From a virus (Duplodnaviria > Caudoviricetes), in the IMG/VR virus record IMGVR_UViG_2974597119_000001, positions 1-64,000 of that record: DNA of 64,000 bases; one strand, written 5' to 3'. Position numbers and translations under genes: made by a program. A model generated the notes under the pieces. That model saw only the letters and a list, made by a program, of their open reading frames with translations. It was not told where the DNA came from and searched no databases. Below, piece after piece: positions 21,098-49,318 of the stretch; positions within the stretch are counted from its first letter, which is position 1, and each line of letters begins with the position of its first letter.

Positions 21098-24000
21098 TCA
21101 AAGCAGAGACGGTTGTGAATCCGGCGCGGCCTGACGTTGTTTCAAATAGTAAGCCACGCCGGACTCGTCGAGCCCTTCCAGCGGCGTCGTCATCAGATCG
21201 CGCAGCCCGTATTTCTTGCGCAGGCGGTCGCGCGCGCGGTGGACTTCGGGGTGATCCGGCACGCCGTCGATCAGCTCCACGTCGTTTTTCTGGCCGGTGC
21301 GGAAGATGCGGCCGTTGCGCTGCGCGTGCGTCATGGCCGTCTGCGGGGTGTCGTATTGGTACAACCATTGCCCGCGCTGGATGTTCATGCCCGTGGCGCC
21401 GGCGTCGGACGCGACCAGGATGTCGGCCTGGGCTTCGCCCTGCTCGGGGTTGAACATCTGCCGCTTGCGGTCCTTTTCCTTGGCGCTGTCGGCGCCGGTG
21501 ATGGTGACCACGCGGTGCCCTTCCCGCTCCAGCCGCTCGGTCAGCATCTTCACCGCCTCGAGCGAGTGCGCGAACACCACGCCGGGCTTACCCTTGCGCT
21601 CGGCCGCGACCTGGGAGAGCTGGTCGACGTTGGGGTTGTCCGGGTGCGTGTTGATCACGCGCTGCACGGCCGACGATTTCAGGATTCCCAGGTTCTGCTG
21701 CAGGTCGCGGGCGACGGCTTCATGCTGATCGTCCGGAACGCCCTCGAACGACGACGGCGAGATCGCGCGCATGGCGGTCACGTCCACCTTGCCCTGCATG
21801 CGCGCCAGCCGCGCCGTGCTGAAATGCTGGTCCAGCTCGCCCAGCGCCAGCTTCTGGCCGTCGGACAGGCCCAGGCGCATTTCCTTGCGGTCGGCCGCCA
21901 CGTCCGGATCGATCTTCGACGGATACACGTAGCGCGCCATCTCGCGGCGCAGCGCATCCTTCGACGCCAGCGTGTCGGCGCCGTAGCGGCGCATGAACGC
22001 GGCGCGGTCGTTGTACCGGGCCGGATCCATCTTGCGCATCAGGTCGTAGACCTCGGACGCGTCATTCTTCACCGGGTCGCCGGACGCCATCAGATAGTAA
22101 GGTGTGTGGTGCGACAGCGCGTCGACAACGTTGGCGAGCCGCGAGTTTTCCTTGCCGGCGCGGTTGAGGGTGTACTGGCTTTCGTCGACCGTGAGGTAAT
22201 CGAAATTGATACCCTCGGCATCCAGGACGCCGCGCATCCAGTCCTTGCGCTCGTCGTCGGTCATGGCGTTCAGCCGGTCGGACATTTCCGACTCGGCGAT
22301 GCCGGCGTGCTTGGCGCCCAGGTGCAGCATGTCGTCGCGGAACGACTGATGCGTCATGACGGCGAAATGCGTGTCCGGGTTCTTGTAGGCGGCGATGCGA
22401 TCCTCGCGGCCGGCGCCGGGCTCGATGTGCCAGTTGAACTTGCCGGGCTCGAGGTAGCGCAGGGCCTCGCCAGAGAACTGGCCCTGCACGATGGACGGCA
22501 CCAGGAACAGGCCGCGCTTCACCTTGCCCTGCTCGCGCAGGTGCGTGAACGAGGCGAGCTGCAGCAGCGACTTGCCGGAGCCGGTGCCGAACGCCGCGAC
22601 GACGCGCTTGTTGGCGTCGACCATCTTCACCAGCCGCTGGCGCGCCGCGTTCTTGCCGCCGCTCATGGTCGGATTCCAGAGCTTGGTCGGCTGGCCCGGT
22701 TTGAAATTCTGGCCGACGATTCCCATCATGCCGGCAATCTGCCGCTCGGCCTCGTGCCCCAGCGTGTGCCGCTCATCGCCGCCAAGCTGGATTTCCTTCG
22801 CCGCCTCGCCCGCACCACCGCCGAACATATCGTCCTGGGCGGAGAAAAAGCCCATCTGTGCCTGCTCGAACGCTTCCTGCCGGTCGCGCGCGGCGTCCAT
22901 CTTCTCGCCCACGCTACCGCTGGCGTAGCGGCCGCCCACGCGCTCGCGCAGGCTGTCGATCAGCGCGCGCTCGCGCTGCATGCGATCCTCGCGCGCGGCC
23001 GGGTCGGTCGCGTCGAGGTGATTCAAATTGTTACGGATGACGGCCTTGCCCAGCTTGATCGGCGCGCCCGGGTTGAGGCGGTTGTGGGCGTCCGCGAACG
23101 ACTTCGCGACGTTCGAGCGGATCAGATCCTGCACCGCCTCGTAGGCGTTCTCGTTGCCGCGCATCGTGTCGACGTACTTGCCCCAGGTCAGCGACGCCGC
23201 GCCGACCTTGGCCGCGAGCTCGTCGCGCTGCTGGCGCCACTCGGACCATTCGGGGTTGGTCACGGTGTCGCCGAACATATCGGTCGTCTCTTTCTCCGGC
23301 TCGGCGCCCTGAATGCGGTCCAGGTCCGCGCGCAGGCCGGCGGCCTCGGGGCTTTCCTTCGCCACGTTGCGATAGAAGAACTCGCGCAGCGCGCGCTGGT
23401 CCTGCGGCGTCAGCTCGCCGAGCTGCTTGTAGGCGGCCGTGCCCTCCGGCGTGTCCGACAGGGCGCGGTGCAGCGCGTCGACCGCCTTCTGGTCGACCGT
23501 GAATTTCTGCCGGTTCAGGGTCGAACGGCCGCCGCCGTAGCGCTGCTCGACGAACTGGTCGGCATACTGGTCGAAGCGATCCGCCAGGGCCTCGGCGCGC
23601 TGCATCTTGCCGTCCTGGCCCTTGAGCGGCGCCACCGCGTCGAGCGCGGCGCGGTATTCTTCCGACCGGTCGCGGCCCACCTTGACGAAGAACTCCGCCG
23701 ACTGGATGTCGGCCACGATATCGCCCGGCGCGTCGCCGTCGGCCGCACGGCCGCCGATGTAATCGCGCAGCGACTGCTCGAGGTCGGCGCCCGGCTGGAA
23801 TTGCTCGGCGAGGCGCGGCGCGACGCCGGGCTTCACGTCCATAACCAGGTCTGGCCGGTTCGCCACGCCCAGCGGCAACCAGCCGTCCTCGTCGTGCTCG
23901 CCCTGGATGATCGAGAGGTTGCGGCGCACCTGCTCGAGGTCGCCGCGCTGGATCGGCTTCGCCAGCCGGTCGAGGCCGGCGCCGTTCACGGTCAGGAAGG

Positions 24001-25654
24001 TGTCACCCGCCACGCTGTCGATGGTGTAGTCGCCGCGCTGCAGGCCGATGGCCCGCACCTGCCGGATGGCGTCCTCGATGCCCAGCTTGCCGAGCGAGAC
24101 CTGGAACTGGTCTTTCTTGCCCTGCTTGAGCGCCACGACCAGGGCCGCGTTCGCCTCCATCTCGCCCAGGGCCTGACCCAGCACCTTCTGCGCGCCCGTC
24201 ACGGCTTCGCGCCGGCGCGCGTTCAGCTCCTGCGCAGCCTGCAGGTCGGCGCCCGTGGCCGCCTCGCCGAGCTCGATTTCCTTCGCCGCGTCCATCAGGT
24301 CGCGCGCGGTGCCCAGGGCCTCCTCGCTAGCCTGCATATAATGGTGAAGGTGGAAGTCCTGCATGCCTTCGGCGACCCGCTCCACCTCGTCCGGCATGTC
24401 GGTGTGGATCCGGCGCGCCAGCACCTGCGCGGCACCGGCCACGCCCAGCACGTCGACGACGCTGCGGTCGACCAGGGCATCACCGCCGACGGCCAGCGCC
24501 AGCGAGTTGACGCTGTTGTAGGCGCCGATGCCGATATGCTTGCCCAGGGTTTCCTCGGGATTCGGCCCGGCCAGCTTCTCGAACTCGGACAGGAACGCCC
24601 GCGTCTGCATGGTGCGCAGGTCGTTGTTCAAGTCCTCGGCAATCTTGGCGTCGGTGTCCGGGTCGGCGCTGTACTCGAGCACGTAGGCTTTCGGCTCGGC
24701 GGCCGCGCGGTCGATTTCGGCGCTCGCCTCCCGCGCCTTCTTCTGGATGGCGCGCAGCTTCTTCTGCGCGCGCAGCAGTTCGACCGCCTGCTTGGCGTCG
24801 GCCAGGGCGGCGTCGGCGTCCGGCACGGCCGGCTCGCGGATGTTCTTGAGCTCGTCGCGGATCATGCGCGCGGTCTCGCCGCGCTGCACGGCCGCCTTGC
24901 GCTGGGCGTCCGTCATCTGCGCCTGCTTCGCGGCGCGCGCGCGGTCGGCCTCGGCCTTGAGCTCGTCGTCCGTCAGGCCGGCATCCTCGGCGCGCCCCTT
25001 GTAGTCCGTCTGGAAGCCCAGGCCGCCCGGGTTGTCAGGAATCGGGTTCAGGTCTTGGACCGACAGCACCTCCGGATCCTTGGCGTCCAGCGGAACCTCG
25101 CCGATGCCCGCCTCCATGCGCGCGGCCGAATCGGTGACAAGGCGCTGGCGCTGCAGCTCGACCGCATCGTTGGCGCGCTGCACGAGCTCGCGGTGATGCT
25201 TCTTGCGCATCTTGCCGAGCGCCGCGTCGGACAGGTGCGCGTAATCGGCCTCCGGAAACTCCAGGCCGGCCGGATCCCAGCCCATCGTTTGCGCGACGGT
25301 CTGCACGAACTCGCGCTCGTGCGCCATGCGCTGCGCGCGCACGTTCTCCTGCGCCTTCTTCTTCGACTCGAGGATGCCCGCCTCTTTGTCGCGCTTGCGC
25401 TGTTCCTTTTTCTGGTCAGCCTTGTCCTTCTTGCGCTGCTCGGCCTCGCGCTTGTATTCGGACTCCGAGCGCACGCTGCGCAGCTTGAGATAGTTCAGCT
25501 TGCCGCCGGCGCCGCCGATGACGTGCGCCGAGCCGTCCGGGTTTTCCTGGATCAGCACAGGCTGCCCCTCGGTGCCCGGCCCATTGGGATGCACGGTGAT
25601 CCAGCGCGCGCCGGCCGGGATTTTCGAGGCTTTCAGGAACAGGATCGGCTTCAT
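21098..25654 (-). CDS. Large SNF2/SF2 helicase-like protein, probable virion cargo
   Basis: Start MKPILFLKA (25654); FGTGSGKS, VDESQ, GMNIQ and QRNGR motifs. Confidence 0.85.
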   Translation of the reverse strand: MKPILFLKASKIPAGARWITVHPNGPGTEGQPVLIQENPDGSAHVIGGAGGKLNYLKLRSVRSESEYKREAEQRKKDKADQKKEQRKRDKEAGILESKKKAQENVRAQRMAHEREFVQTVAQTMGWDPAGLEFPEADYAHLSDAALGKMRKKHHRELVQRANDAVELQRQRLVTDSAARMEAGIGEVPLDAKDPEVLSVQDLNPIPDNPGGLGFQTDYKGRAEDAGLTDDELKAEADRARAAKQAQMTDAQRKAAVQRGETARMIRDELKNIREPAVPDADAALADAKQAVELLRAQKKLRAIQKKAREASAEIDRAAAEPKAYVLEYSADPDTDAKIAEDLNNDLRTMQTRAFLSEFEKLAGPNPEETLGKHIGIGAYNSVNSLALAVGGDALVDRSVVDVLGVAGAAQVLARRIHTDMPDEVERVAEGMQDFHLHHYMQASEEALGTARDLMDAAKEIELGEAATGADLQAAQELNARRREAVTGAQKVLGQALGEMEANAALVVALKQGKKDQFQVSLGKLGIEDAIRQVRAIGLQRGDYTIDSVAGDTFLTVNGAGLDRLAKPIQRGDLEQVRRNLSIIQGEHDEDGWLPLGVANRPDLVMDVKPGVAPRLAEQFQPGADLEQSLRDYIGGRAADGDAPGDIVADIQSAEFFVKVGRDRSEEYRAALDAVAPLKGQDGKMQRAEALADRFDQYADQFVEQRYGGGRSTLNRQKFTVDQKAVDALHRALSDTPEGTAAYKQLGELTPQDQRALREFFYRNVAKESPEAAGLRADLDRIQGAEPEKETTDMFGDTVTNPEWSEWRQQRDELAAKVGAASLTWGKYVDTMRGNENAYEAVQDLIRSNVAKSFADAHNRLNPGAPIKLGKAVIRNNLNHLDATDPAAREDRMQRERALIDSLRERVGGRYASGSVGEKMDAARDRQEAFEQAQMGFFSAQDDMFGGGAGEAAKEIQLGGDERHTLGHEAERQIAGMMGIVGQNFKPGQPTKLWNPTMSGGKNAARQRLVKMVDANKRVVAAFGTGSGKSLLQLASFTHLREQGKVKRGLFLVPSIVQGQFSGEALRYLEPGKFNWHIEPGAGREDRIAAYKNPDTHFAVMTHQSFRDDMLHLGAKHAGIAESEMSDRLNAMTDDERKDWMRGVLDAEGINFDYLTVDESQYTLNRAGKENSRLANVVDALSHHTPYYLMASGDPVKNDASEVYDLMRKMDPARYNDRAAFMRRYGADTLASKDALRREMARYVYPSKIDPDVAADRKEMRLGLSDGQKLALGELDQHFSTARLARMQGKVDVTAMRAISPSSFEGVPDDQHEAVARDLQQNLGILKSSAVQRVINTHPDNPNVDQLSQVAAERKGKPGVVFAHSLEAVKMLTERLEREGHRVVTITGADSAKEKDRKRQMFNPEQGEAQADILVASDAGATGMNIQRGQWLYQYDTPQTAMTHAQRNGRIFRTGQKNDVELIDGVPDHPEVHRARDRLRKKYGLRDLMTTPLEGLDESGVAYYLKQRQAAPDSQPSLL

Positions 25655-25938: not shown

Positions 25939-26265
25939 TCAGAGGCCGCCGGCATCCGCATCGATCAAGGTGAAGGTCTCGCCCTCCGGGTCGGTCAGGT
26001 CGGCCGAGCCCATCGCGTAGGAGGCATTGATGCGATACGTCTCGATGGCCGCCGCGAGCGCTTCCTGCAGGTCGGCGTGCGCCGGCATGCGGTCGACCAC
26101 GGAATGGTCGATGTAGTCGCCGAGCAGGAACAGGTTGTCGCGCGTGTAGTACCGCTTGAGCAGTTCCTTGATCAGGAACCAGTACACGCCGAAGTTCCGG
26201 TAATTGCGCGGGTCGGTCTGTAGGAGCTGCAGCGTGCTCGCCGCAAGTTGCTTGGGATCGATCAT
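25939..26265 (-). CDS. Hypothetical protein coupled to the DarB-like gene
   Basis: 108 aa, ATGA overlap, GGAGG SD. Confidence 0.7.
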   Translation of the reverse strand: MIDPKQLAASTLQLLQTDPRNYRNFGVYWFLIKELLKRYYTRDNLFLLGDYIDHSVVDRMPAHADLQEALAAAIETYRINASYAMGSADLTDPEGETFTLIDADAGGL

Positions 26266-29200
26266 GCCGCCTCCTTGCGCAGCGCGTCAGCGAGTTTCAT
26301 GCCCTGCGTCTGGAACGGAATATGGGGCTGGTAGGACGGGCCCAGCTCTTTGACGGTTTTCTCGCCGATCTCGGGATGCTTGGCGATCATGTGTCGCACG
26401 GCGTCCGCGACGGCTTCGTTGCTCATGACGGGCAGGCGCATCAGGTCGCGCACGGTTGCCTCGGGGTCGCCATCCTTCGCCGACACCATCATCGCGGCCG
26501 CCAGATCGTGGTAGCCGTTCTTCTCGGCCAGCCTGACAAGAGTGTTGCGCACGGTCCCGGCGACGGGTTGGCCGTTGTACCAACCGTCGGCGGATAGCGC
26601 GCTCCCAATCTGACTGCCATCGCGATAGCTCCACAGCTCATTGGGAAGCACGTTGACCTGCCGGCCATAGCTTTCCGTCTTGGGCTGCACGGCCTGAAAT
26701 GACTGTCCCAGCACGCCGTCATGCTTCGCCTTGGCAAACAGCGTCGCCAGCGCCTTGCGCGGCCACGTCGGCGTGGTCGAGTACCCGAACTCGGCCATCG
26801 GCGCCGCCTCGCGCAGCGCGTCGGCGAAGGTCGGCGCCCGGCGGATGCGCTCGCCCTGGACGCGGCTGAACGCTTCCCGCGCCTCTTTCTCGAAGCCCTC
26901 GCCGAACGCCATCTTGCCGGCCGATGTCCAGCGGTTGTGCCGCTGGCCGAACTTGCCGGGGTACTTCTCGACGAACCGCGCCTCGGACCGGCCGCCGCGC
27001 CGCTTCGTCATGTACTCGGTGCCGAACGTGCGGGCCTGCTGGTCGGCGATATACGCCTGGATGGCCTTCTCGCGGTTTGCCTCGGTCGGAAGCAGGTAAT
27101 CGTGCGTGTCGTGCTGGTTATGATGGCCGTAGCTTTCCGCCACCTCCAGCGCGCCGGTTTCCCGGTTGATCATCGGCACATCGCCATAGGGCATGCGGAA
27201 CGTGTGCGCCTTGGCGCCCGCCTTCACCTGCCGCTGGATCGCATCGTGGCTCGACGCCAGGATCGACGGCGGCAGCGCCGTCACGTCTTCCCAGCTCCCC
27301 AGGTTGTTCGCCTTGTCGGCGGCCGCCGCCTCGAGCTTGGCCGCGACTTGCGCCGCCTCGGCCGCCTCGTCGAACTTGAAGGCCGCCACGCCGTGCGCCA
27401 GCTTCGACGACGGCACGGTGATCGCGCCGGCGCCCTTGATCTCGCCGTAGCGGCGCATGGACACGTCACCCGTGGTCGGGTTCACGTCGGTGACGACCCA
27501 CTTCACGGTGCTGCCGTCGGTCTCCGTCACGTCCAGGCCGGTGCCGCGCTGCATGGCGATGCCGGTATCCGGATGGATGACGACAGGCTGGTCGCTGTCC
27601 AGGGCGCCCTTGGCGCCGAAATACTTGTTGTTCGACAGGATCGTCTTGGCGCGCTCGATCTTGGCGCGCAGGCGTTGGGCGCTCACGGAATTCTTGTTCT
27701 GCAGGTCACGGAAACTGCGCTTCATGACCTGGAACCGGACGAACTCCGACGCGGCCGCACGGCGCTGCTCGCCGTCGTAGCGCTCCTGCGCCGCCGCCTT
27801 GTCGGCCTCGAACTTGGCGCGCTCGGCTTCCGGGTCGGCCGACATCATGATCAGCAGGTCGGAGCGGTCGAACCGGCCCTCGCGCGCCATGTTGTCCACG
27901 CGGTCGCCGCCGTTCCACAGCACGTCCTGCCAGTCCTTTTTCGCCATCATCGACTGATAGCGATAGCCGTCGAACGAGCCCTTGCTGATGTAGACGTGCA
28001 GCCGCACGGCCTCGTTGATATTGCCCTGGCGCAGGCCACGCCCGTTGCGCTGCTGCATCGAGGCCGGCTCCCACGGCAGGTCCATATGGTGGATGTCGGT
28101 CGTGCGTTTCTGGAGGTTCTGGCCCTCCTCCATCGTCTTGTTGCCGATTACTACATCGAGCTTCCCGGCATTGAACGCGTCAGCGATGTTCTGCCGTTTG
28201 GCAGACGATTCCGCCTCCTGCGCGTTCATGATCGCGATCCGGTCGCGCGGGATACCGGCCTTCACCAGGGCGGCGGCGATCTTCTCGTGCGTGTCCACGG
28301 CCTCGGCGAACACCACCTGCCCGCCATCCTTGGCGCCAGCGGCGATATGCTTGGCGGCCTCGGCGTATTTCGGCGAGTGCGCGCCGGCGTGCTCGGCGCC
28401 CAGCAGCTCCAGGTCCATCGCCGCCTTCGCCATCTTGTCCATGATCGAGAAGATGTGCGCGTCGCCGGTCGCATCCTTCTTCGTGGCGAGCTCGGCCATC
28501 TGCTCGCGCAGGTCCGCGTACACCGCCTGCTGCTCGGCCGTCATGTCGATCATGTGCATGCGGTCGTCGCGCGCCGGCAGCGCCAGCCCCACGTCGGCCG
28601 CCGTCTTGCGGTCGATGTAGCGGCGCATGATCTCGCGCAGCTCACCCAGGTTCTTGAACCCGACCGTGACCAGCGCATCCTGGATCGTGCCGTCGGTGCC
28701 CAGGATCTTGTCGTTGGCGAACTCGCAGAAGCGGTCGAGGAATTCTTCCGAGTTGCGGATGCCGATGCGCTCGAACGCCTCCGGCGAGATATGCGACAGC
28801 ATCGAGTAAATCTCGAGCGGCGAGTTCTTCGTCGGCGTCGCGGTCAGCATGAAAATGCCGTTGCCGCCGTTCTGCTCACGCACCCACCTCGTCTTGAGGT
28901 TCATGTCGAGCGCGCGATTCGACAGGCCCTGGCCGCCCAGGAACTTCGGCGACTCGCCGAACCGGGCGCGCGCCGCGTACAGGTTTTTGAACGCGTGGCC
29001 CTCGTCAACCAGGAGCATGTCGACGCCCAGGTCGTTGAAGTAGATCGCGTCGGTGCGCTTACGGAAATCGCGGTCGGCGATGGCCTGCTCGTAAGCCTCG
29101 CGCACCTTCTTGCGGCGCTTGTCGCCGGCGTTGCCCAGCTTGTCGCCGCGCTGGACCCAAAAATCCTCGCCGACGTACTGTTCCTTGGTGATCGGGTCCA

Positions 29201-32200
29201 GGTCGATGTCGTTGAACGACGGCTGCGAGATGAACACGAAATCGTAGTCGTTCTGCGTCAGCTCGTGCAGCTTGCGGTTCCGCTCGGCCGCCGTGTCCGG
29301 CTTCGATTTCAGGTTGCCCGCCTTGTCGCGGGTGTAGGTCTCGCCGATCACCAGCACGCGCGAGCCCGGGAACCACTTCTCGGCCTCGGCCATCCAGTTC
29401 GCCAGGACCGACTTCGGCACGACAAACGTCGGCTTCTTGGCCTGTCCGTTCATCTTCGCCATGCGCGCCAGCATCAGGCCGCGCACGGTCTTGCCCAGGC
29501 CCACGTCGGCCGCGATGATGCCCTTGCCGGCCGCCAGCGCCCAGCGCAGGCCGCCGTACTGGTAGTCTTTCAGGCCCTCGTCGTTCAGGCCCGGTATGTC
29601 GATGGGCGCGTTCGAGAACTCGCGCTGCACGAAGCCCCGGAATTTCCGGTTGTACAGATCCTCGACCTGATCGCGGTAGCGCGACGACAGCAGCCAGAGC
29701 TTGAAATCCTCGTTCCAGCGCTCGATGGTCGGCAGGTCGTCTTTGCGCACGCCGGTGCGGTTCAGGTACTTGTCCAGCAGCGCGGCGTCGCCGTACTGGT
29801 TGCCGCCCTGGATGGTGTAGATGCCGTCGGCAAACGTGATCGACACGTCCGGCTGCTTGCGCACCCAGTCGTTGTCGGAGCCGTTCTTTCGGTCGTTGAA
29901 GTAGGCCGCCAGCACGTCCGTCGGCACGAAGGCCGAGTTGACCATCACCTCGACATCCTCGAGGGACTTCGGATCGATCACTTCCTCCAGGCGCCGGGCC
30001 TGGGCGGCATACTTCTCGGCCAGCCCGTCGCGCAGGTCGCCGCGCGCGATCTCGGCGCGCACAAGGTCCAGCTTCGGCCAGAGCTCGCCGGTCAGGTACT
30101 GGTCCATCGTGGTCCACTGGCCGCCGCCGGCGTAGGCGTAGGCCGGCGAGGCGAACAGCGCGTCCTCGACCTCCTCCACATCCTTGCCGATCCGGTCGGC
30201 CAGCTCCGCCGCTGAGAATGTGCCGCTGGTGCGCTCGAGCGCCAGGGACTGCGCGGCGGTGTCCAGCGTTCCCTCGACGCGGCGCGCGGCTCGGCCGGTC
30301 ACGGCGTCGGACAGGGAGCCGTCGGCGCTCACGGCGCCGATCAGGCGGTACAGCGTCTTGTCCTGCGACGCGGCAAGCTGGAGGTTGGCGTTCTTGCCCG
30401 GGTTGCCGTGCTGGGCCACCCAGGCGCGCACACGCTCCTCGAGCGCGGGCCGGTCGACGGCCTGCCCGGTGAACAGCCGGTCGATGTCGGCCGCGATGTC
30501 CTGCGCGTCGCGCACGGCGGGATCCGCCAGGAATTCGTCGACGCGGTGCCAGCGCGGCGGCCGGCCCTGCAGGATGTAGGTCACGCCGTCGACGACCTTG
30601 GTGTCTCCGACCTTGGCGTTGCCATAGGCCCGCATCACAGCGCCGCCGAGCGCCTTCTTCTTCGCGGCCTCGTCATCGCCAAGCGCATCGAGCACGGCGT
30701 GCACGTCCGGCGTGGCCGTCGTCACCTCGTCCGGCGTCCACTTCGCGATCTCATCCGGCACGCCCTGCATGGAGCCGGACACGGTGATGTCCTGGCCCAT
30801 GCCGGCCTTGGCGCGCCAGCCGGCTTCCATCGTGCCGAAGATGCTCGAGGCGCCGCGCCCGGCGAAGTAGCCGCCGGACAGGTATTCGTCGTCCCATACG
30901 CCGAGCTGCTTGAGCGTGTCCCGGTTGACCGTCATCAGCGCGCCGGCCACATCGTCCGCCCTCTTGCGGAAGAACACGATGTCGGTCGTCACTCCGGTAT
31001 GCGAGTGCTCGAATGCGGTATTCGGCATGCGCACGGCGCCCAGGAACTCGCCCTTTCGCAGCAGGCGTTCGCGCAAGCTCCGATTCGACTTCGCGTCCAT
31101 CACGCTGGTCGGCACGATCATGGCGACGATGCCACCCGGCTTTGTCTTGTCGAGCGCGGTGTCCAGGAAGTAGCCCTCGGCCGACTTGAGGCCGGGCTTG
31201 TCGTCCTTGATCAACGGGCCGCGCAGGCCGAACGGCGCATTGCCGATCACCACGTCGAATTGCCGGTCGCCGTCCTGCGTCGCGAAGCGCTCCAGGCTCG
31301 CATTGACGATCTCGTGTCGGTCGCCGTGCAGCACCTCCGCCACCTTGGCGCTGGTCGGGTCGAGCTCGACGCCGGTCACCTTCACGCCGGCCGGCGCGGT
31401 GTGCAGGAACACGCCAGTCGCGCAGGACGGCTCGAGCACGGTGCCGCTCGTGAAGCCCAGGTTCGCGAGCGCCGTCCACATGGCCGAGGCCACGGCCGGG
31501 TCAGTGTAGAACTCGTTCCAACTGTCGCCGCAGCCGCCGTTGCCGCTGTACTGGCGCATCAGCGCGCGGTCGGCGTCGCTGTACTCGTCCTTGTCGGCGG
31601 TCACCAGATCGACGACCTGCGCGTTGATCTCGCGGCGCTGGCCCTTGGTGATGCCAGCCGGCACGCCGAAGGAGCCGCGCTCGGCTGGCGCTATGTCCAC
31701 AGCTACCGGCGTTGTGTCCAGAGCTGCCGGCGCTATGTCCGGAGCTTTCGCCGGCGTCGCGGCCGCAAGGTGCTTTTCCCGGATGAACCACCCGCCGTCC
31801 TTCCTGAACGTGTACGGGTCGATGTCCTTCGCCTCGGCCTGCGTCAGGTCGCGACGAATGATGCCGCGCAGCGTCTTGCCCTTGCCGTTCTTGGTGACGT
31901 GCTCGACGATCTCGGGCGCCGGGTCGGCGGTCATGCCCAGCGCTTCGCGCGGCAGGTAGTCCTGCATCTGCACGGGAACAACGCCGTTCGCCTGCTGGCG
32001 CCCGCGCGTGGTGCTCGACAGGTGCGCCATCACCTTGCCATCGTCGCGCGCGGCGCCAGTGTTCAGGACGTGCCAAGTATCGCCATCGTGCTCGACGACA
32101 GGCAGGTCGAGCGCCGGCGGGGCCACGAACTCGCTGGCGGGCTTCGGTTCGGCGGCCGGCTGCGCGAACAGATCCAGCGTCTCGCCCTTGGCCGGCTCGG

Positions 32201-32555
32201 CAGGCTTGAGGCCGTCGAACATGGCCGCCATCTCGGCCGGCGTCTTGCCGTCGAGCTTCCCCATGCCGGCGAAAATCTGCTGCTGCTGGCCCTCGGTCAT
32301 GCCGGCCAGCATCTGCGCGAGCCCGTTCAGGCCGCCGTGGCGCGCGATGAAGGCGTCCAGCTTCGACCGCTTCGCGCGCGGCGCCGGCGCAGGCGGCGGT
32401 TCCGCAAACAGCGATCCCTGCGCATGCGGTTTGAGCGCGACCTTCTGGATCCGGATGTGCGGCTTGACGACCGTGCCGTCCTTGCGGACGTGGGCGCCCA
32501 CATGGACCGGCGTGTCAAAGAGCGCGAGCTGCGCTTTCGTGAGGAGAATGATCAT
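26262..32555 (-). CDS. DarB-like DNA methyltransferase + SNF2 helicase polyvalent protein
   Basis: 2097 aa; EFYT, VLEPSCATGVF and IGNAPF (amino-MTase); DVGLGKT, VDEGH, LTATP and QRNGR (SNF2). Confidence 0.88.
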   Translation of the reverse strand: MIILLTKAQLALFDTPVHVGAHVRKDGTVVKPHIRIQKVALKPHAQGSLFAEPPPAPAPRAKRSKLDAFIARHGGLNGLAQMLAGMTEGQQQQIFAGMGKLDGKTPAEMAAMFDGLKPAEPAKGETLDLFAQPAAEPKPASEFVAPPALDLPVVEHDGDTWHVLNTGAARDDGKVMAHLSSTTRGRQQANGVVPVQMQDYLPREALGMTADPAPEIVEHVTKNGKGKTLRGIIRRDLTQAEAKDIDPYTFRKDGGWFIREKHLAAATPAKAPDIAPAALDTTPVAVDIAPAERGSFGVPAGITKGQRREINAQVVDLVTADKDEYSDADRALMRQYSGNGGCGDSWNEFYTDPAVASAMWTALANLGFTSGTVLEPSCATGVFLHTAPAGVKVTGVELDPTSAKVAEVLHGDRHEIVNASLERFATQDGDRQFDVVIGNAPFGLRGPLIKDDKPGLKSAEGYFLDTALDKTKPGGIVAMIVPTSVMDAKSNRSLRERLLRKGEFLGAVRMPNTAFEHSHTGVTTDIVFFRKRADDVAGALMTVNRDTLKQLGVWDDEYLSGGYFAGRGASSIFGTMEAGWRAKAGMGQDITVSGSMQGVPDEIAKWTPDEVTTATPDVHAVLDALGDDEAAKKKALGGAVMRAYGNAKVGDTKVVDGVTYILQGRPPRWHRVDEFLADPAVRDAQDIAADIDRLFTGQAVDRPALEERVRAWVAQHGNPGKNANLQLAASQDKTLYRLIGAVSADGSLSDAVTGRAARRVEGTLDTAAQSLALERTSGTFSAAELADRIGKDVEEVEDALFASPAYAYAGGGQWTTMDQYLTGELWPKLDLVRAEIARGDLRDGLAEKYAAQARRLEEVIDPKSLEDVEVMVNSAFVPTDVLAAYFNDRKNGSDNDWVRKQPDVSITFADGIYTIQGGNQYGDAALLDKYLNRTGVRKDDLPTIERWNEDFKLWLLSSRYRDQVEDLYNRKFRGFVQREFSNAPIDIPGLNDEGLKDYQYGGLRWALAAGKGIIAADVGLGKTVRGLMLARMAKMNGQAKKPTFVVPKSVLANWMAEAEKWFPGSRVLVIGETYTRDKAGNLKSKPDTAAERNRKLHELTQNDYDFVFISQPSFNDIDLDPITKEQYVGEDFWVQRGDKLGNAGDKRRKKVREAYEQAIADRDFRKRTDAIYFNDLGVDMLLVDEGHAFKNLYAARARFGESPKFLGGQGLSNRALDMNLKTRWVREQNGGNGIFMLTATPTKNSPLEIYSMLSHISPEAFERIGIRNSEEFLDRFCEFANDKILGTDGTIQDALVTVGFKNLGELREIMRRYIDRKTAADVGLALPARDDRMHMIDMTAEQQAVYADLREQMAELATKKDATGDAHIFSIMDKMAKAAMDLELLGAEHAGAHSPKYAEAAKHIAAGAKDGGQVVFAEAVDTHEKIAAALVKAGIPRDRIAIMNAQEAESSAKRQNIADAFNAGKLDVVIGNKTMEEGQNLQKRTTDIHHMDLPWEPASMQQRNGRGLRQGNINEAVRLHVYISKGSFDGYRYQSMMAKKDWQDVLWNGGDRVDNMAREGRFDRSDLLIMMSADPEAERAKFEADKAAAQERYDGEQRRAAASEFVRFQVMKRSFRDLQNKNSVSAQRLRAKIERAKTILSNNKYFGAKGALDSDQPVVIHPDTGIAMQRGTGLDVTETDGSTVKWVVTDVNPTTGDVSMRRYGEIKGAGAITVPSSKLAHGVAAFKFDEAAEAAQVAAKLEAAAADKANNLGSWEDVTALPPSILASSHDAIQRQVKAGAKAHTFRMPYGDVPMINRETGALEVAESYGHHNQHDTHDYLLPTEANREKAIQAYIADQQARTFGTEYMTKRRGGRSEARFVEKYPGKFGQRHNRWTSAGKMAFGEGFEKEAREAFSRVQGERIRRAPTFADALREAAPMAEFGYSTTPTWPRKALATLFAKAKHDGVLGQSFQAVQPKTESYGRQVNVLPNELWSYRDGSQIGSALSADGWYNGQPVAGTVRNTLVRLAEKNGYHDLAAAMMVSAKDGDPEATVRDLMRLPVMSNEAVADAVRHMIAKHPEIGEKTVKELGPSYQPHIPFQTQGMKLADALRKEAA

Positions 32556-32585: not shown

Positions 32586-32601
32586 ATTGTGCTGTCACGA
32601 T
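32586..32601 (-). promoter_or_regulatory. Late-type promoter (ATCGTGAC-AG-CACAAT) for the DarB-like gene
   Basis: Recurrent motif about 30 nt upstream of ATG 32555. Confidence 0.7.
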
Positions 32602-33110
32602 CAGTTTGCCGGGCGCGCCGCCAAGAACAGCACCAGGGCCTTGATCATGGCCGGCTTGTCGCGCGTGGCCCGCACCTTCGTTACAAACTCGTCGACCGGC
32701 ATCGCCGTGATCGGGCCGAGAAAGCGCGGATCGTCGTAGTGCTCGAGGTACGCGGCGCGCGCGGCGGCCTCGCTGGGGAAGCCCAGCATGCACTTGTCCT
32801 CGTCGTACTTGGCCCATTCGCCATACTTGCGCTGATGCACCACGTAGACCGTCGGCGCCGTCTCGAGCTCCGGGCCCAGGTACACGTCCACCTCGTCGCC
32901 GTCGACCGCCTCCGACCGGCAGACGTAGCCGTAGTCGTACTTCATCTTCGTGCGCCAGCCCTTGCCCTCGCGCACGGACCCGGCCGGGTTCTCGATGGCG
33001 ATCTCCAGGCCGTTCCACTTCACGCGCGGCTTCTTGTAGTTGCCGGCCTCGGCCTGCGCCGGCGTGGGCGGCGTCCACGCATCGGCCTTGAGCAGCACAA
33101 CGGCGCCCAC
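32601..33110 (-). CDS. Phage inorganic pyrophosphatase-like protein
   Basis: GTG 33110; IENPAGSVR, YGY, DGDEVDV and DEDKCMLGF motifs of the polyvalent-protein PPase domain. Confidence 0.8.
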   Translation of the reverse strand: MGAVVLLKADAWTPPTPAQAEAGNYKKPRVKWNGLEIAIENPAGSVREGKGWRTKMKYDYGYVCRSEAVDGDEVDVYLGPELETAPTVYVVHQRKYGEWAKYDEDKCMLGFPSEAAARAAYLEHYDDPRFLGPITAMPVDEFVTKVRATRDKPAMIKALVLFLAARPAN

Positions 33111-33112: not shown

Positions 33113-33292
33113 CTATTCCCTGGCCTTCTGGACCATCTTCTGGCCGACGTTCGCCGTGAGATAGGCGCCGACGGACGCGATGACGACGGCGGAATACACG
33201 CCGTCCGAGATGTGGCCGAACCACACGAGGCCCGTGGCGCTGGCGAGGGTCGCGGCGGCCAACAGGAATTTGCGGCTTGCGTAACGGATCAT
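33113..33292 (-). CDS. Small two-TM membrane protein (holin-like)
   Basis: MIRYASRKFLL start, two hydrophobic segments, basic C-terminus. Confidence 0.55.
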   Translation of the reverse strand: MIRYASRKFLLAAATLASATGLVWFGHISDGVYSAVVIASVGAYLTANVGQKMVQKARE

Positions 33293-34449
33293 TTCGTCTC
33301 CAGGGTCTGGCGGAGCCAGTTTCCAAAATCGGTGTCGTCGCCGGGCTCGTCCTGGATCACAGGAAGCCAGCGGCCACGGCAATGCGGGTGCTGCACGCCG
33401 GCGGCGATCCACCAGCGCTCATCCGGCTCGCGCTCGACCAGCGTGTTGCCTACGCGCTTGCGCGGCGCCGCTGAGCGGCCGATGTTCGTTTTGCCCGGCC
33501 AGATTTGCGTGTCGCCGTCCTTTTTCGGCGCATCGGCCGCCACGACCTCGACCACCTTGCCGTCGATCTTTCGGCAAAAGGCGCAGGCGTTGCGGTACTG
33601 CTCGACGCGCTTTAGCTTCGTCCCCGGTTTCTGGCTGGAGACATAGCCCTGATTGGCGTTCTCGCCGGCCTCGGTCACAGCGATGCGGCGCCAGTCGCGG
33701 TTCAGCGTCGCGAACTCGTCGAGCAGCGTCGTCTGCAGGCTGTGAGACGGGCGCGGCGCCTCGCCGTGGCCGGCCAGCATCTGCTCCTCGGTGTGCTGCC
33801 GGATCACGTTGCGCATGCGGTGCCGCGCGTCGTCGGCCAGCTTCTGCACGTTCTCCGCAGCGCGCGCCGCGCCGAAGCGCATGACGTTGACCTGCAGCGG
33901 CGTGAGCGGCAGGAACTGCGCCGCTTCGTCCACGGTCGACGGCAGCGCCGCGAGCACCGTGTCGGCCTGCTTGGCGTTCAGGGCCTCCATGCTGGCCTGC
34001 ACGCGGCCCATGAGCGTCGCGCGCGTCGCGAGCCATTCGGCCTCGGTGCGCAGGTCGTCCGCCGGCAGGTAGCGCTGCACGAGGTAGTCGACCATCAGCA
34101 TGTTGTCGTCGAGCGTCCATTCGGCCGGCGGCAGGGCCTCGAGATAGAGCTTCACCAGCTCGCGCTCGCCCTCAGTCCAGCGCTGCATGGCGCCATCGGG
34201 ACGCGCCGGCACCGTGCCCGGCCGGTGCTTCTCGCCAGCCAACCACTTCTCGAGCTCGGCCCGGAAGCCATCCAGGCGCATGAGCCCGCGCTGCGTGAAC
34301 AATTCGATCAGGCGTCGGACGAACGGCGACTCGTGCGGGTTCCAGATGGAATCGTCGCCGTCGTGAGTGTGCAGGGCCTTGTAAATCTGGTTGAGCGCGC
34401 GGTCAGTCTGCGGCTCGTTCAGGGCGCCCAGGTCGAATAGGAGTGCCAT
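33289..34449 (-). CDS. MuF/gp7-like head morphogenesis protein
   Basis: RIAVTE, ACAFC and HPHCRG motifs. Confidence 0.8.
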   Translation of the reverse strand: MALLFDLGALNEPQTDRALNQIYKALHTHDGDDSIWNPHESPFVRRLIELFTQRGLMRLDGFRAELEKWLAGEKHRPGTVPARPDGAMQRWTEGERELVKLYLEALPPAEWTLDDNMLMVDYLVQRYLPADDLRTEAEWLATRATLMGRVQASMEALNAKQADTVLAALPSTVDEAAQFLPLTPLQVNVMRFGAARAAENVQKLADDARHRMRNVIRQHTEEQMLAGHGEAPRPSHSLQTTLLDEFATLNRDWRRIAVTEAGENANQGYVSSQKPGTKLKRVEQYRNACAFCRKIDGKVVEVVAADAPKKDGDTQIWPGKTNIGRSAAPRKRVGNTLVEREPDERWWIAAGVQHPHCRGRWLPVIQDEPGDDTDFGNWLRQTLETK

Positions 34450-35953: not shown

Positions 35954-37431
35954 GTTCTCCGAATCAGCATGATCATTTTAGAGAAAGGCGCGGCCTTCTG
36001 CAAAGGTACATGGTCCTGCTGTTGCTTTCCGTCAACGCCGGACTGCCCTGCGCCGGACGCCTTGCTCCAGGCCGTGTCGTAGATTTCCTTCTGCGCCTTG
36101 AGCGCTTCGTAGAACTTCCGGTGATCCTCGTCCGACCATTTGTCGCCCGGCTCGGCCTCGCCGTACTTGGCCTGGAGGCTGCGGCTCACGTTGTAGTGCT
36201 CGTGCCCCTCCTCCTTGGCGAGCGTCATCGCTTTGACGTGAATCTGGAGCTCGGCCAGCATTCCGTTGGGCAGCTTCACGATGGTCATGAGGTCGCGGTA
36301 GCCCTCGTCGGTCGGCTTGGCGAACCGATCCTTGGGTTTCTGCGCCAGCTCGATCCCGGCGTCGCGCAGGTGCCCCAGCGCCTGTTTCACGCTGCCCATC
36401 GACGGCACGCTGATCGTGGCGCGCACGATGTCGCGCAACTGCGACCAGTCGCCGTCATAGTCGGCCTCGACCTTTTCCTTGGCGCGCTTCTCGCCCTTGA
36501 GCGGCGCGATGAACAGGAACCCGGTGTCGCTTTCCCATTCCTCCGGCGTGATGTCGTCCGGTTTCTTGCCGGACTGCAGGCCCATGACCTGGGCGACCTT
36601 GCCGAGCTGTTCGCGGAACTGGCCCAGCCCCTCGGTGCCCTTCTCGACCAGCTCCTCCCACGATTTGACCGGCTGGTTCACCTTCGCCGGCAGCTTGGCG
36701 AGCTCGTCGGCAGTGAACAGCGCGCCGCTGTCGTTGGCCGGCGCCGGCGCGGCCGCGCCCTGGTCGGCTATCTCGGACCAGCGGACCTGATGCACGCGGC
36801 CGGACGCGTCTTTGACGTGCGCGCCATCTGCGCCCGGTTCACCGACGATCTCGCCCTCGCCCTCGAAATCGCCCGCCTTGAACCGCACCTTGTCGCCCGG
36901 CTTGGCGCGCGGCGCGCCGGCGGCGGCCGGATCCTCATGCGCCGCAGGCTTGCGCTGGGCCGGCTGGCCCTTGTCGGTGCGGACCCATTTCGTCTGCTTG
37001 CGGCCGGTCCGGTCGACGATCTGCTTGCGCGTCAGCCCGGCGCGGTTCGCCGGCGGCATGTCGTGGTTGTCGGCTTTGAAGAACAGCAGCACGCGCCCGT
37101 CGGCGCCGAGAGATTTGGTGACCAATTTGTCCTCGTCTGCGTCGGGCGGGATGGACAGGTAGCGGCGCTGGCCGGCCGCATCCTCGACGATCATGCCGTC
37201 CTCGCCCTCATCGAGGATCGTGTAGCGCTGCGCGGCGCGCTTCTTGTGCCCGAGCACCTTGCCCCAGGGGACGCGGTGATCTTCGCCATCGCAGTCAACC
37301 GTGCAGCCGTGCTTGCCGTGCGCGCGCACGCAGCCGGCGCGCGGGCCGTCGCCGTGCTGGAAATAGACGTGATCGCCGATCTCGACGCCGGGCACGCGCT
37401 CCGGCTCTTGCTGGGGCTTCGCTTTCTTCAT
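35950..37431 (-). CDS. RelA/SpoT-family nucleotidyltransferase (small alarmone synthetase) with N-terminal extension
   Basis: LKGEKRAKEKV, LRDIVRATI, DRF...GYRD, AELQIH and H..Y motifs. Confidence 0.82.
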   Translation of the reverse strand: MKKAKPQQEPERVPGVEIGDHVYFQHGDGPRAGCVRAHGKHGCTVDCDGEDHRVPWGKVLGHKKRAAQRYTILDEGEDGMIVEDAAGQRRYLSIPPDADEDKLVTKSLGADGRVLLFFKADNHDMPPANRAGLTRKQIVDRTGRKQTKWVRTDKGQPAQRKPAAHEDPAAAGAPRAKPGDKVRFKAGDFEGEGEIVGEPGADGAHVKDASGRVHQVRWSEIADQGAAAPAPANDSGALFTADELAKLPAKVNQPVKSWEELVEKGTEGLGQFREQLGKVAQVMGLQSGKKPDDITPEEWESDTGFLFIAPLKGEKRAKEKVEADYDGDWSQLRDIVRATISVPSMGSVKQALGHLRDAGIELAQKPKDRFAKPTDEGYRDLMTIVKLPNGMLAELQIHVKAMTLAKEEGHEHYNVSRSLQAKYGEAEPGDKWSDEDHRKFYEALKAQKEIYDTAWSKASGAGQSGVDGKQQQDHVPLQKAAPFSKMIMLIRRT

Positions 37432-39176
37432 GGCTCGATGCGGAAAACCGGCAGGCCGAACGCTTTCTGCAGCTCCTCGCCGCCGGCGGCGCCATCGTCC
37501 TGGCCGTCATCGTCGGCCGGCGGCTTGCCGAAGTTGGCGCCGGTGTCGTTCTCGCCACCCGGGCTCCCGAAATCCTCGCCGTCGTCGTCGTCATCGTCGC
37601 CGGGCGCGCCGGGCTGGCCCTGCCCCGGCTGGCCGAAATCCTGCTCCTGCGCCTGGTTCTCGGCCTGCCACACGCCGATCAGCGACGGGTTGATGGGCGC
37701 GGTGCCGATCTTCCCGCCCACGGGATCGAGGCCGTCGATGGCGCGCATCTCGTCCCAGGTCATCGCCAGCTTCTGGCGCTCGAACGCGCGCTGCTCGTCC
37801 TCCTCGTCCAGGCCGGTCCAGCGGAACACGTACTTGTCGGAGAACTCGGCGACGATGAAGTCTGAGAACAGGTTCTCGAAATAGGACAGCAGCGGACGCA
37901 GGCCCTTGTCCTTTGAATTCGCCAGCTTCTCCTCGGTGTCGTCGCCCGACAGGCTCGACGTGCCGGCTGTGAAGGACTCGAAATTGATCTCGTCCGGGGC
38001 GATGCCGTAGATCGCGCAGATGATGCTCGTGAGGAACGTCATCCACTTGGCGAACATGATCTCGTTCACCTCGACGCCGAAGTTCTCGAACGAGGCTTTC
38101 GATTCCTGGTCCTTGGAGATCATGACCGGCAGGGTCCAGGCATTGTTGATGCCCTTGACCATCGCGTTCCAGTAGCGCCGGAACGCCGCCAGATCCTTGT
38201 CGTCGTAGTTCCCCGTGAGGTGCAGCAGGCCCTTCGGGATCTGGTTCGAGTCGAAAAACTTGGTGTTGTAGGTGAAGGCGTTCAGGAACCCGGTGACCGT
38301 GCGCACCAGCAATTCCGTCTCGGCGAAGCCGTAGCCACCTACCGTGACATCGGTGCGCGGATTGCGCGGCACGTAGATCAGGTCGTCGTAGGTGTAGACG
38401 GAGCGGATGTTCCCCTCGACGACCTGGAGCGAGAAAATCTCGTCATCGCCGCGATAGCCATCCTCGGAACACAGGCGGATCGTGCCGCCGTCGACCGCGT
38501 ACAGCCCGTCCAGGCCCAGGGTCTTGTCGCGCTTCCATTCGGTTTCGATGGGCGCCGAATCCATCGTCAGGCTGTCGCGCACCAGCTTCGCCATGAAGCC
38601 TGAGAAGTTGTCGCGCTTGAGCCGCATGCGCTGGCGAGGCTTGGCCTCCCAGCCGCAGTTGAGGAAGAAATCCTGCAGCAGGAGGATGGACTGATTTTCC
38701 TCCTCGCCCGCCTTCGCCTTGTCATCCTTGAGCGCGATGCGGAAGCCCGGGCCCTTGCCGGCGCCCTGGACGCGGCAGAAGCGGTCGATCTGGCGCAGGC
38801 GCGTGAAAATCACCGCGCTCAGGATCGGCGTCTGGTCGACCATCGCGCGCATGTTCTGGAAGCTGAACGCGGTCGGCCGCTCGTACCAGTCGCCGACCAG
38901 GGCGAACTGCCGGTCATCCAGCCAGACCGACTGCATGCCCGGCTCCTTCTCACGCACGGCGCGGCTGGGGAACGGGATGATGTTCGGCTTGGCGAGCGCC
39001 TTCGCGAATTCCTGCTGCTCGTACTGATCGCGCATGAACTCGACCATCGGCAGCATGCGCTCGACGTTGACCGACGCCGGGTCGAGCGCCGCCTTTTGGA
39101 GCTCGGTTTGCGCATCGCGCCGCTCGTCGGCGGGCGCAGCGTCGTTGTAGGCGATTTTTGCGGCAGTGTCGGTCAT
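37428..39176 (-). CDS. Portal protein
   Basis: 582 aa; YAVDGGTIR, FFDSNQIPKGLL, CAIYGIAPDEI, SKDKGLRPLL and DEMRAIDGLDP motifs. Confidence 0.9.
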   Translation of the reverse strand: MTDTAAKIAYNDAAPADERRDAQTELQKAALDPASVNVERMLPMVEFMRDQYEQQEFAKALAKPNIIPFPSRAVREKEPGMQSVWLDDRQFALVGDWYERPTAFSFQNMRAMVDQTPILSAVIFTRLRQIDRFCRVQGAGKGPGFRIALKDDKAKAGEEENQSILLLQDFFLNCGWEAKPRQRMRLKRDNFSGFMAKLVRDSLTMDSAPIETEWKRDKTLGLDGLYAVDGGTIRLCSEDGYRGDDEIFSLQVVEGNIRSVYTYDDLIYVPRNPRTDVTVGGYGFAETELLVRTVTGFLNAFTYNTKFFDSNQIPKGLLHLTGNYDDKDLAAFRRYWNAMVKGINNAWTLPVMISKDQESKASFENFGVEVNEIMFAKWMTFLTSIICAIYGIAPDEINFESFTAGTSSLSGDDTEEKLANSKDKGLRPLLSYFENLFSDFIVAEFSDKYVFRWTGLDEEDEQRAFERQKLAMTWDEMRAIDGLDPVGGKIGTAPINPSLIGVWQAENQAQEQDFGQPGQGQPGAPGDDDDDDGEDFGSPGGENDTGANFGKPPADDDGQDDGAAGGEELQKAFGLPVFRIEP

Positions 39177-48562: not shown

Positions 48563-49318
48563 TCACGACCGCCAGTCAGAGATCCCCAGCTCGTCGCGCA
48601 TCACCTCGTCGACCTCATCGCCCAGGTCAGGGCGGCGAGCGGCGATGTATTGTGCCAACGCACGACTCGAGCCGCCGGCCGACTCCAGGACGCGCATCAC
48701 GTCCGTGCGCCGTAGCTGCTCGACGGAATCCGCCGCGATCTTGATCAGGTGCTCCATGTCCTCGCCGCCAGCCGGCGCCGCCGAGGCACCGATACCCAGC
48801 CGCTCGTTCAGCACGCCCGGCCGGTGATTGTCCGACACGACGCCGGCCGTGCCGAAGGAATCGAACGTCGAGCGCGGGTCCGCCTTCTCGGCCTCCTCGC
48901 GCGCGCGGTCGACGTGCGCCAGGGCCTCGTCGTGCGTGTCGAACGGGCCAGCCAGCCGCGCGACGCCACGCCCCTCTCGCGCCATCGTCACGTAATACTT
49001 CCGGCGCGGGTCGTCGTCGTCCGGGCCCTGCTTGGTGCTGCGCACAGCTTCGCGCGCCTCCGCCTCGTCGGCCATGCGGTCGTAGCCCTTGGCGTCCTCG
49101 TGGTGGCCGCGCTCGCGGTACTTCCGCGCCATGTCGCGAAAGCGCTCGGAATCGGATTGCTTCGGCGCTGGCGTGGCCGCCGGCGCCGGGAACAGCGCGA
49201 GCTGGCCGGTCGCTGCCGACGCCACCGCGCCGCCCTTGCGCTCGTGCGGCTTCACGTAGCGTCCGGCGCGCATGTAGCCGGCAACATGCGATTTCAGGAA
49301 CAGGATGACGGTGCTCAT
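48563..49318 (-). CDS. Hypothetical protein, probable virion cargo
   Basis: MSTVILFLKSHVAGYMRAGRYVKPH N-terminus; leaderless late-type promoter at 49319-49340. Confidence 0.7.
   Translation of the reverse strand: MSTVILFLKSHVAGYMRAGRYVKPHERKGGAVASAATGQLALFPAPAATPAPKQSDSERFRDMARKYRERGHHEDAKGYDRMADEAEAREAVRSTKQGPDDDDPRRKYYVTMAREGRGVARLAGPFDTHDEALAHVDRAREEAEKADPRSTFDSFGTAGVVSDNHRPGVLNERLGIGASAAPAGGEDMEHLIKIAADSVEQLRRTDVMRVLESAGGSSRALAQYIAARRPDLGDEVDEVMRDELGISDWRS

Follow-up and report, generated by a model that had tools for sequence, protein, structure and literature searches.

The first 64 kb of a 94,005-bp phage genome of 65% GC (IMG/VR record IMGVR_UViG_2974597119_000001, positions 1 to 64,000; the window, below, is this whole 64,000-nucleotide stretch) encode six proteins of unrelated fold that carry one short leader: a Met, zero to three further residues, four or five hydrophobic residues, and then K-[AS]. 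The leader is N-terminal in five of these proteins, and its sixth copy sits at a conserved domain joint inside a 493-amino-acid (aa) post-portal protein. All six copies lie where the first-pass annotation, made from the sequence without database searches, had placed them, and the second motif that it described behind the leader (H/Q-V-x-G/A-Y/H-x-R-..-G-..-V-x-P-H/Y, hereafter the hairpin) occurs in exactly the three proteins it had named. The leader-bearing proteins and their elements are as follows.

21098..25654, minus strand, SNF2-family helicase protein, 1518 aa, with a long unassigned N-terminal region (Helicase_C, ResIII, SNF2-rel_dom)
25628-25654, minus strand, N-terminal leader of the SNF2 protein
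26262..32555, minus strand, DarB-like N6-methyltransferase and SNF2 helicase, 2097 aa (N6_Mtase, SNF2-rel_dom, Helicase_C)
32532-32555 and 32457-32504, minus strand, leader and hairpin of the DarB-like protein
32601..33110, minus strand, polyvalent-type inorganic pyrophosphatase (InPase), 169 aa, GTG start (PF18823, 3.2e-45)
33084-33110 and 32601-32648, minus strand, N-terminal leader and C-terminal tail (M-I-K-A and a hydrophobic run) of the InPase
35166..35744, minus strand, HD_4 (SpoT-like) hydrolase, 192 aa, GTG start (HD_4, 3.3e-21)
35724-35744 and 35676-35723, minus strand, leader and hairpin of the HD hydrolase
35950..37431, minus strand, post-portal effector protein, 493 aa (RelA_SpoT, 4.4e-7)
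37072..37092, minus strand, internal leader of the 493-aa protein (residues 114-120), at the same joint in the relatives G001, G003 and G004
35950..36003, minus strand, C-terminal tail of the 493-aa protein (L-Q-K-A, a short spacer, a hydrophobic run and basic end residues)
48563..49318, minus strand, 251-aa protein, away from the cluster
49289-49318 and 49244-49288, minus strand, leader and hairpin of the 251-aa protein

Four of the six proteins have a single recognized Pfam domain or none, leaving only the DarB-like and 493-aa proteins as multidomain. The DarB-like protein is about 29% identical to P1 DarB across residues 289-1640, with 56% of the query covered. The 493-aa protein consists of a conserved N-terminal domain, the internal leader with a second site, V-T-K-S, just before it, a hairpin, a small beta domain, the RelA_SpoT synthetase domain, and a putatively cleavable hydrophobic tail.

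The leader is too rare and too consistently placed to be accidental. Its pattern, written as [ILVFM] at least three times, [ILVFMT], K, [AS], has exactly six matches in the 119 predicted proteins (27,744 aa), five of them within the first 10 residues, and the probability that at least five of six copies would be N-terminal is 4e-6. In 2000 within-protein shuffles, the pattern fell within the first 14 residues of 0.05 proteins on average and of two at most. The reverse motif, K-[AM] followed by a hydrophobic run, occurs only twice in the proteome, both times in the last 15 residues, at the ends of the InPase and the RelA_SpoT protein, as had been noted before. A scan of 1.84 billion representatives with a profile of leader plus hairpin, of the kind that the first-pass annotation had proposed, recovered 1230 protein clusters at E<=1e-3; many have two to nine copies per protein, and some contain the hairpin alone. 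The codons of the leader vary between copies (CTG/CTC, AAA/AAG, GCC/GCG/TCG) while low-GC relatives keep the peptide, so the signal resides at the protein level, and a DNA-level motif was rejected as the source of the leader on the same codon differences. Chance, a gene-calling artefact, or a by-product of a DNA signal at gene starts could be argued from the two GTG starts (InPase and HD hydrolase) and from the late DNA motif that lies just upstream of some starts, but the GTG starts are supported because homologues elsewhere have an ATG at the same point, the shuffle statistics are decisive, and neither the differing codons, the low-GC relatives, nor the 1230 clusters fit such an origin. We regard this explanation as refuted and give it practically no weight. 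Neither Pfam nor PHROGs contains a family for the leader or the hairpin, and partial DUF5666 and Transposase_24 matches on hairpin repeats were judged spurious.

The distribution of the leader follows the phage head and not the enzymes. By its portal, terminase, capsid protein and protease, the genome belongs to a group of little-studied myophages of roughly 86-96 kb. Portals of 54-70% identity are found in Pseudomonas phages Dolphis, Jeremy and Touem01, Aeromonas phage ST4, Yersinia phage fHe-Yen8-01, Enterobacter phage phiT5282EW, Escherichia phage ECML-606-1 and Morganella phage Mecenats66, and the Thermus Lalka phages and SPO1-like phages are remoter kin. A tblastn search with two 35-aa leaders against 50,697 phage records gave weak matches (E 0.01-4) on eight portal-sharing phages, with Blautia phage Montmirail (E = 1) as the lone outsider. 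In the portal-sharing phages, the leader stands on other cargo, namely NUDIX hydrolases, small proteins of unknown kind and ART polyvalent proteins of 1178-2146 aa. Each of the four complete IMG/VR relatives has three to six leaders, as opposed to zero or one in reversed-sequence controls, and SNF2 homologues in G001, G003, G004 and L035 share the leader. A relative carries one to six leaders, on SNF2, DarB-like, InPase, HD, NUDIX, ART, RelA_SpoT and unknown proteins. The converse sample consisted of 162 IMG/VR viral loci chosen by cargo domain, 80 around an InPase and 82 around ART-PolyVal or the polyvalent protein P0150. The module was present in 4 of the 162, exactly the four that have homologues of the portal and/or of the 386-aa head-module protein of our phage; no locus had the tag only or the head genes only, and 158 had neither. 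This is the most informative result of the analysis, and the conclusion drawn from these comparisons, that the leader appears specific to one head-assembly module rather than to the enzymes, is well founded. The idea of a modular leader is supported: the leader sits on unrelated folds and travels with one head module.

The position of the enzyme genes is in keeping with this distribution. The minus-strand late operon runs from the portal through the 493-aa RelA_SpoT protein, a 69-aa open reading frame (ORF), the HD_4 hydrolase, a metallophosphoesterase and the 386-aa head protein to a 59-aa ORF, the InPase (PF18823), the DarB-like methylase-helicase, a Ulx-like protein and the SNF2 protein, and ends with two small ORFs, the prohead protease, a scaffold-like protein and the major capsid protein (MCP). 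The 386-aa protein and the protease come almost directly after the portal in Dolphis and ST4, the relatives inspected, and therefore about 16 kb of enzyme genes lie within the head module here. The members of the operon without a leader, other than the small ORFs lacking a row of their own and the protease-proximal genes listed further below, are these.

37428..39176, minus strand, portal protein, 582 aa (Pfam Phage_portal, 8e-17)
35741..35950, minus strand, 69-aa protein between synthetase and hydrolase, without leader (ORF call)
34471..35163, minus strand, calcineurin-like metallophosphoesterase, 230 aa, without leader by its N-terminus (Metallophos, 2.2e-15)
33289..34449, minus strand, conserved 386-aa head-module protein, without leader (49-58% identity to relatives)
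25939..26265, minus strand, Ulx-like protein, 108 aa, directly after the DarB-like gene (phrog_1629, 7.3e-26)

The 69-aa protein has no Pfam or PHROG match. Homologues of the 386-aa protein are Dolphis gp6, ST4_091 and Yen8_002, and it is possibly a minor capsid protein; the MuF identity once suggested for it could not be upheld, as Pfam offers it only a Phage_min_cap2 match whose E of 0.014 misses the cut-off. The SNF2, DarB-like, 386-aa, portal and protease genes have the late motif TCGTGAC 15-39 nt upstream of their starts, with sites about 15 nt before the start codons at 20532-20538 (protease), 25670-25676 (SNF2), 34464-34470 (386-aa protein) and 39191-39197 (portal), all on the minus strand; the motif occurs 19 times in the window against 11.5 expected. 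The earlier claim that this motif precedes all tagged genes stands for the SNF2 and DarB-like genes and fails for the HD, InPase and RelA_SpoT genes, which are operon-internal and have no copy of their own; the 251-aa gene has only a one-base variant of it. The spacing from TCGTGAC to the start codon leaves hardly any room for a ribosome-binding site. Outside the window, at genome positions 86771-88084 on the plus strand, a predicted 437-aa protein has an N-terminus that by eye resembles a tyrosine integrase, which would suggest that this myophage of about 94 kb is temperate.

The K-[AS] end of the leader directs attention to the prohead protease and its likely substrates.

19624..20517, minus strand, prohead maturation protease, 297 aa (phrog_1028, 2.5e-66)
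18956..19627, minus strand, scaffold-like acidic protein, 223 aa, with seven [LM]-x-K-[AS] sites
17423..18925, minus strand, MCP, 500 aa (phrog_752, 2.7e-109)

An AlphaFold2 (AF2) model of the protease, with a predicted local distance difference test score (pLDDT) of 76, has T4 gp21 (5JBL) as its best PDB fold match at E 5.8e-6, and chains A-C of that entry all match (E 6e-6 to 3e-5, probability 1.0). T4 gp21 cleaves after [LI]-x-E, the same P3/P1 layout as [LMF]-x-K with opposite charge. The motif [LMF]-x-K-[AS] fits all six leaders, the InPase tail (M-I-K-A) and the L-Q-K-A before the tail of the 493-aa protein, and it is concentrated in head proteins: the scaffold has 7 sites where 0.53 would be expected, the protease 5 (0.5), the portal 3 (0.63) and the post-portal protein 3 (0.74). 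These four rank highest of the 119 proteins, with an excess of about tenfold for the scaffold and the protease and of about fivefold for the portal. The sites are also placed and conserved in a manner suggestive of processing. Those of the scaffold are kept in ST4, Dolphis and fHe-Yen8-01, and the SPO1 scaffold has eleven [LIV]-x-K-S sites; K21-A22 and K204-A205 of the protease are invariant among 120 homologues; three [L/F]-x-K-A sites occur in the portal (K28, K59, K571), and a short hydrophobic C-terminal tail comes after the third. In the MCP, L-Q-K-A at residues 34-37 marks the boundary of a variable propeptide and a conserved body. In four phages the N-terminal 35-45 residues vary and the body behind them is highly conserved, an arrangement also seen in SPO1. 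Listeria phage A511 Cps reportedly loses 23 residues. The structural candidate sites have only one to three hydrophobic residues in P6-P2, compared with four or five in the leaders, and the hydrophobic run is therefore a separate element, dispensable for the candidate cut site. The first-pass proposal of a tag removed by the prohead protease gains support for the leader, which ends in K-[AS] and so conforms to the candidate site of a gp21-fold protease, and must be dropped for the second motif, which would stay on the mature protein and is a widespread hairpin repeat. Protease residues of about 200-230 mimic MCP residues of about 34-65 (G-G-.-A-L-.-.-Q-S-L-D), as they do in ST4, Dolphis, fHe-Yen8-01 and SPO1, and this mimicry of the MCP N-arm may be the route by which the protease enters the procapsid.

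How the leader sits on a folded enzyme can be judged from the InPase. Its AF2 model has a core with pLDDT 83-97, while residues 1-9, 155-159 and 164-169 are below 50. In the model, the leader and the tail hang unstructured from a well-predicted core, and on this ground we rejected, for the InPase, the idea that the leader is a core strand of the enzyme. An exposed, unstructured strand might also act in the producing cell, where it could mark the protein for degradation or aggregation, anchor it in a membrane, or keep toxic enzymes inhibited as a pro-piece, and some of the cargo is potentially toxic (the alarmone synthetase here, a Zeta toxin in G003, ART proteins in relatives). With just 4-6 residues, however, the hydrophobic run is not long enough to cross a membrane or form a signal peptide, and both were rejected for this reason, while a single eight-residue piece is an unlikely inhibitor of unrelated folds. 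A role in the producing cell would leave unexplained both the strict co-occurrence with one head module and the match to a motif enriched in scaffold, protease and portal, and we consider it improbable.

A more serious competitor comes from giant phage proteins in which the same module lies between domains. In the phage proteins P0122 (PBECR3, InPase, LPD3), P0127 (Acb1), P0129, P0138 and P0150, the module stands at the N-terminus and at every domain joint; P0129 has an ART-PolyVal domain followed by a module with about 40 residues that match the N-terminus of the 251-aa protein, leader and hairpin included. No relative of P0127, the Acb1 fusion, was found among the viral contigs searched. A 506-codon ORF of G002 (28875-30395, equal to about 8975-10495 of L046) joins a small beta domain, an InPase and two further pieces with modules between them, and its third and fourth joints retain a Met ahead of K-A and its hydrophobic run; the ORF encodes a polyprotein or else represents genes that fused recently. 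P0122, P0129, P0150 and the G002 ORF each hold several effector domains per polypeptide, and the earlier description of the present genome as a polyvalent toolkit split into separate genes is a fair one, given that relatives fuse the same domains with the module at every joint. These architectures could mean that the module is merely a protease-cleavable joint, its N-terminal copies having been left by gene fission and being clipped or ignored, with loading left to Ulx, the hairpin, the post-portal protein or bulk capture. Module copies at every joint of the five giant proteins and the G002 polyprotein, the Met kept before the strand at every G002 joint, and the presence of a Ulx-like gene all agree with such a scheme. 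Relics would decay, however, and the N-terminal copies persist across hosts that range from Yersinia to Bordetella-like GC content; five genomes keep one on their SNF2 homologue. Moreover, trimming 7-10 N-terminal residues has no obvious purpose unless the removed piece acts first, and the structural candidate cut sites do without the hydrophobic run. The C-terminal copies bear on the same point. In G001 and G003, where the InPase stands alone, its C-terminus is a full tag made up of a candidate cut site, a hydrophobic run, R-K-[SA] and another four residues; our InPase ends in a decayed copy, and where the enzyme is fused, the chain continues at this position with the following domain. Since such a terminal tag is followed by nothing, it has no downstream domain to release, which favors a role of its own for the tag, for example as an address. 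We therefore think it rather unlikely that the module is a joint and nothing else.

The post-portal gene combines internal and terminal copies in one fixed frame. In four genomes (our phage, G001, G003 and G004), it encodes an N-terminal domain, candidate cut site, leader, hairpin, small beta domain, variable effector and C-terminal tail, the effector being RelA_SpoT here and in G004 and Zeta_toxin (3.5e-22) in G003 (L053:16168-17799), and the tail layout is common to the G001, G003 and G004 homologues whatever the effector domain. The gene is a polymorphic-toxin-like frame, and the 69-aa ORF, the HD_4 hydrolase and the metallophosphoesterase that follow could provide immunity or antidote functions for it. 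The hairpin seems to have a wider history. Its commonest form, H-V-x-G-Y-T-R-K-D-G-T-x-V-x-x-H, follows the candidate cut site, whereas P0134, P0141, P0147 and P0149 contain the hairpin alone (V-x-V-x-G-Y-T-R-x-D-G-T-Y-V-x-x-Y/H-x-R-S-x-P) in three to six tandem repeats without leader, once ahead of a Ser/Thr kinase domain, in proteins that we take to be cellular. The hairpin is therefore likely an older, general element, and our guess is that this basic repeat, which would be left on the mature protein, binds DNA or core.

We lean modestly toward the explanation that the leader is a capsid-cargo signal of the head module shared by Dolphis, ST4, fHe-Yen8-01, Mecenats66, many uncultured relatives and the phage described here. 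The genomic context fits a cargo signal, with the enzyme genes between portal and protease, the late motif upstream, and a DarB-like gene paired with a Ulx-like gene. The enzymes would be made late, together with the head proteins, and the exposed hydrophobic strand would recruit them to the assembling procapsid, where the scaffold core, the protease, or the portal with the post-portal protein are candidate receptors. The gp21-fold prohead protease would then cut at [LMF]-x-K|[AS] and remove the strand; the trimmed enzymes would remain in the head, exit with the DNA and act at once on host defense and metabolism, the ejected set comprising the DarB-like protein with Ulx, the SNF2 helicase, the pyrophosphatase, and the alarmone synthetase and hydrolase. 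In relatives with giant polyvalent proteins, the module would both load the chain and dice it into enzymes, and in the present genome the chain would have been split into single genes, each keeping its own copy of the module. Loading, cutting and injection are steps that we infer, and the first-pass interpretation is to that extent partly supported.

Several points weigh against a cargo signal or against parts of the proposed sequence of events. The K-[AS] end looks like a prohead protease site from enrichment and conservation only, and we found no experimental N-terminus in the literature for this protease family or for SPO1-type capsid proteins. The invariant M-L-K-A of the protease begins a core strand in the model, and therefore some occurrences of the motif may be structural rather than cut sites. 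The module is also an internal joint of polyproteins, where one address would suffice, which fits processing as well as loading. The metallophosphoesterase, the 386-aa protein, the Ulx-like protein and the small ORFs have no leader although they are neighbors of tagged genes, and the loading of the DarB-like protein could, by analogy with P1, depend on Ulx and not on the leader. The GenBank record of fHe-Yen8-01 describes its two leader-bearing proteins as particle-associated; the label spans 52 of its 136 genes (38%) and therefore lends weak support. A literature search for a virion proteomics paper on fHe-Yen8-01, Dolphis, Mecenats66 or PHB04 found none.

A broader version of the cargo signal can be envisaged, in which strand, K-[AS] and hairpin form a portable load, cut and carry cassette of the whole gp21-fold/SPO1-type head lineage: the strand would dock to the procapsid core, the protease would cut or dice, and the hairpin would tether the enzyme to DNA or core for ejection with the genome. 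We put this forward tentatively and consider it doubtful at this breadth. If it were correct, 10-30 residues would be enough to load any protein, and the 1230 clusters would amount to a catalogue of injected effectors.

Injected phage proteins act before phage gene expression and are a first line against restriction, the cyclic oligonucleotide-based antiphage signaling system (CBASS) and similar defenses. To our knowledge, how injected proteins are chosen for packaging is understood only for T4, P1 and jumbo phages. A leader that acts as a cargo signal would make the injected arsenal readable from the genome, here the DarB-like and SNF2 proteins, the pyrophosphatase, the alarmone synthetase and hydrolase, and the 251-aa protein. 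It would also explain the cutting of giant polyvalent proteins that lack a peptidase domain of their own, and make a very short tag available with which foreign proteins could be packed into phages of Pseudomonas, Aeromonas, Yersinia and Bordetella-type hosts. In addition, [LMF]-x-K|[AS] would be a testable cleavage rule for a protease family that reaches the SPO1-like phages.

Among the known systems, P1 offers a parallel in gene content. The DarB-type methyltransferase-helicase with an adjacent Ulx-like gene is found here as in P1, and in the same order in the Thermus Lalka phages, so that the parallel to DarB drawn in the first-pass annotation is borne out. According to PMC9024508, and to Piya 2017 as cited in PMC11437467, P1 DarB has an N-terminal packaging signal of 30 residues and requires Ulx for loading. 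P1 Dar proteins have no common signal (PMC9024508), unlike the six proteins here with their one leader; the P1 MCP is cut after Glu, and the P1 DarB N-terminus has no likeness to the leader. In Lalka8 (L142, 371-6634, minus strand), the DarB-like protein has a longer N-terminus with L-L-A-K-A and then Q-P-A-L-F, matching the leader region of our protein, and a Ulx-like gene follows. Judged by such resemblances, the leader idea may extend to phages whose portal is only 36% identical (Lalka).

The enzymes themselves are those of phage polyvalent proteins. Iyer et al. 2017 (PMC5512222) predicted that this domain set is packaged in virions, and proposed processing via zincin-like or C-terminal assemblin-like peptidase domains; term searches of PMC5512222 brought up neither a junction module nor a leader. 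InPase PF18823, RelA_SpoT, SNF2 and N6 methylase are common to that set (PMC5512222) and to our phage, and ART-PolyVal, PBECR3 and LPD3 are found in its relatives. Polyvalent genes also lie near portal and terminase, and here the enzymes lie between portal and protease. Polyvalent proteins combine 2-15 effector domains per polypeptide, whereas most domains here are single genes. The post-portal gene in turn resembles the MuF-type polymorphic toxins of temperate phages, with a gene after the portal, a conserved N-terminal part, a swappable toxin-like C-terminal domain, and then a small ORF and a hydrolase. The 493-aa protein has no MuF (Phage_Mu_F / SPP1 gp7) match in Pfam, and we know of no internal leader or cleavable C-terminal tail in MuF toxins.

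The closest functional parallel is probably the T4 capsid-targeting sequence (CTS) of IPI-III and Alt, which is removed by gp21 (PMC3012670); as here, a leader of about 10 residues is placed on unrelated defense-countering proteins. The T4 leader ends in the motif of its prohead protease, with a hydrophobic residue at P3 and a charged one at P1, and the leader described here ends in a candidate site of that layout. In both systems, the scaffold is rich in the respective motif, and the protease has the same fold, 5JBL being the best match. Unlike the T4 CTS, the leader described here is a plain hydrophobic strand with Lys instead of Glu at the P1 position, occurs also at C-termini and at the joints of giant proteins, and stands on putative cargo as large as 1518 and 2097 aa. 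The sequence of the CTS looks unrelated to this leader, which we therefore take to be an analogue and not a homologue. On our best reading, the leader system would work like the T4 CTS in a sequence form that is new and not homologous to it.

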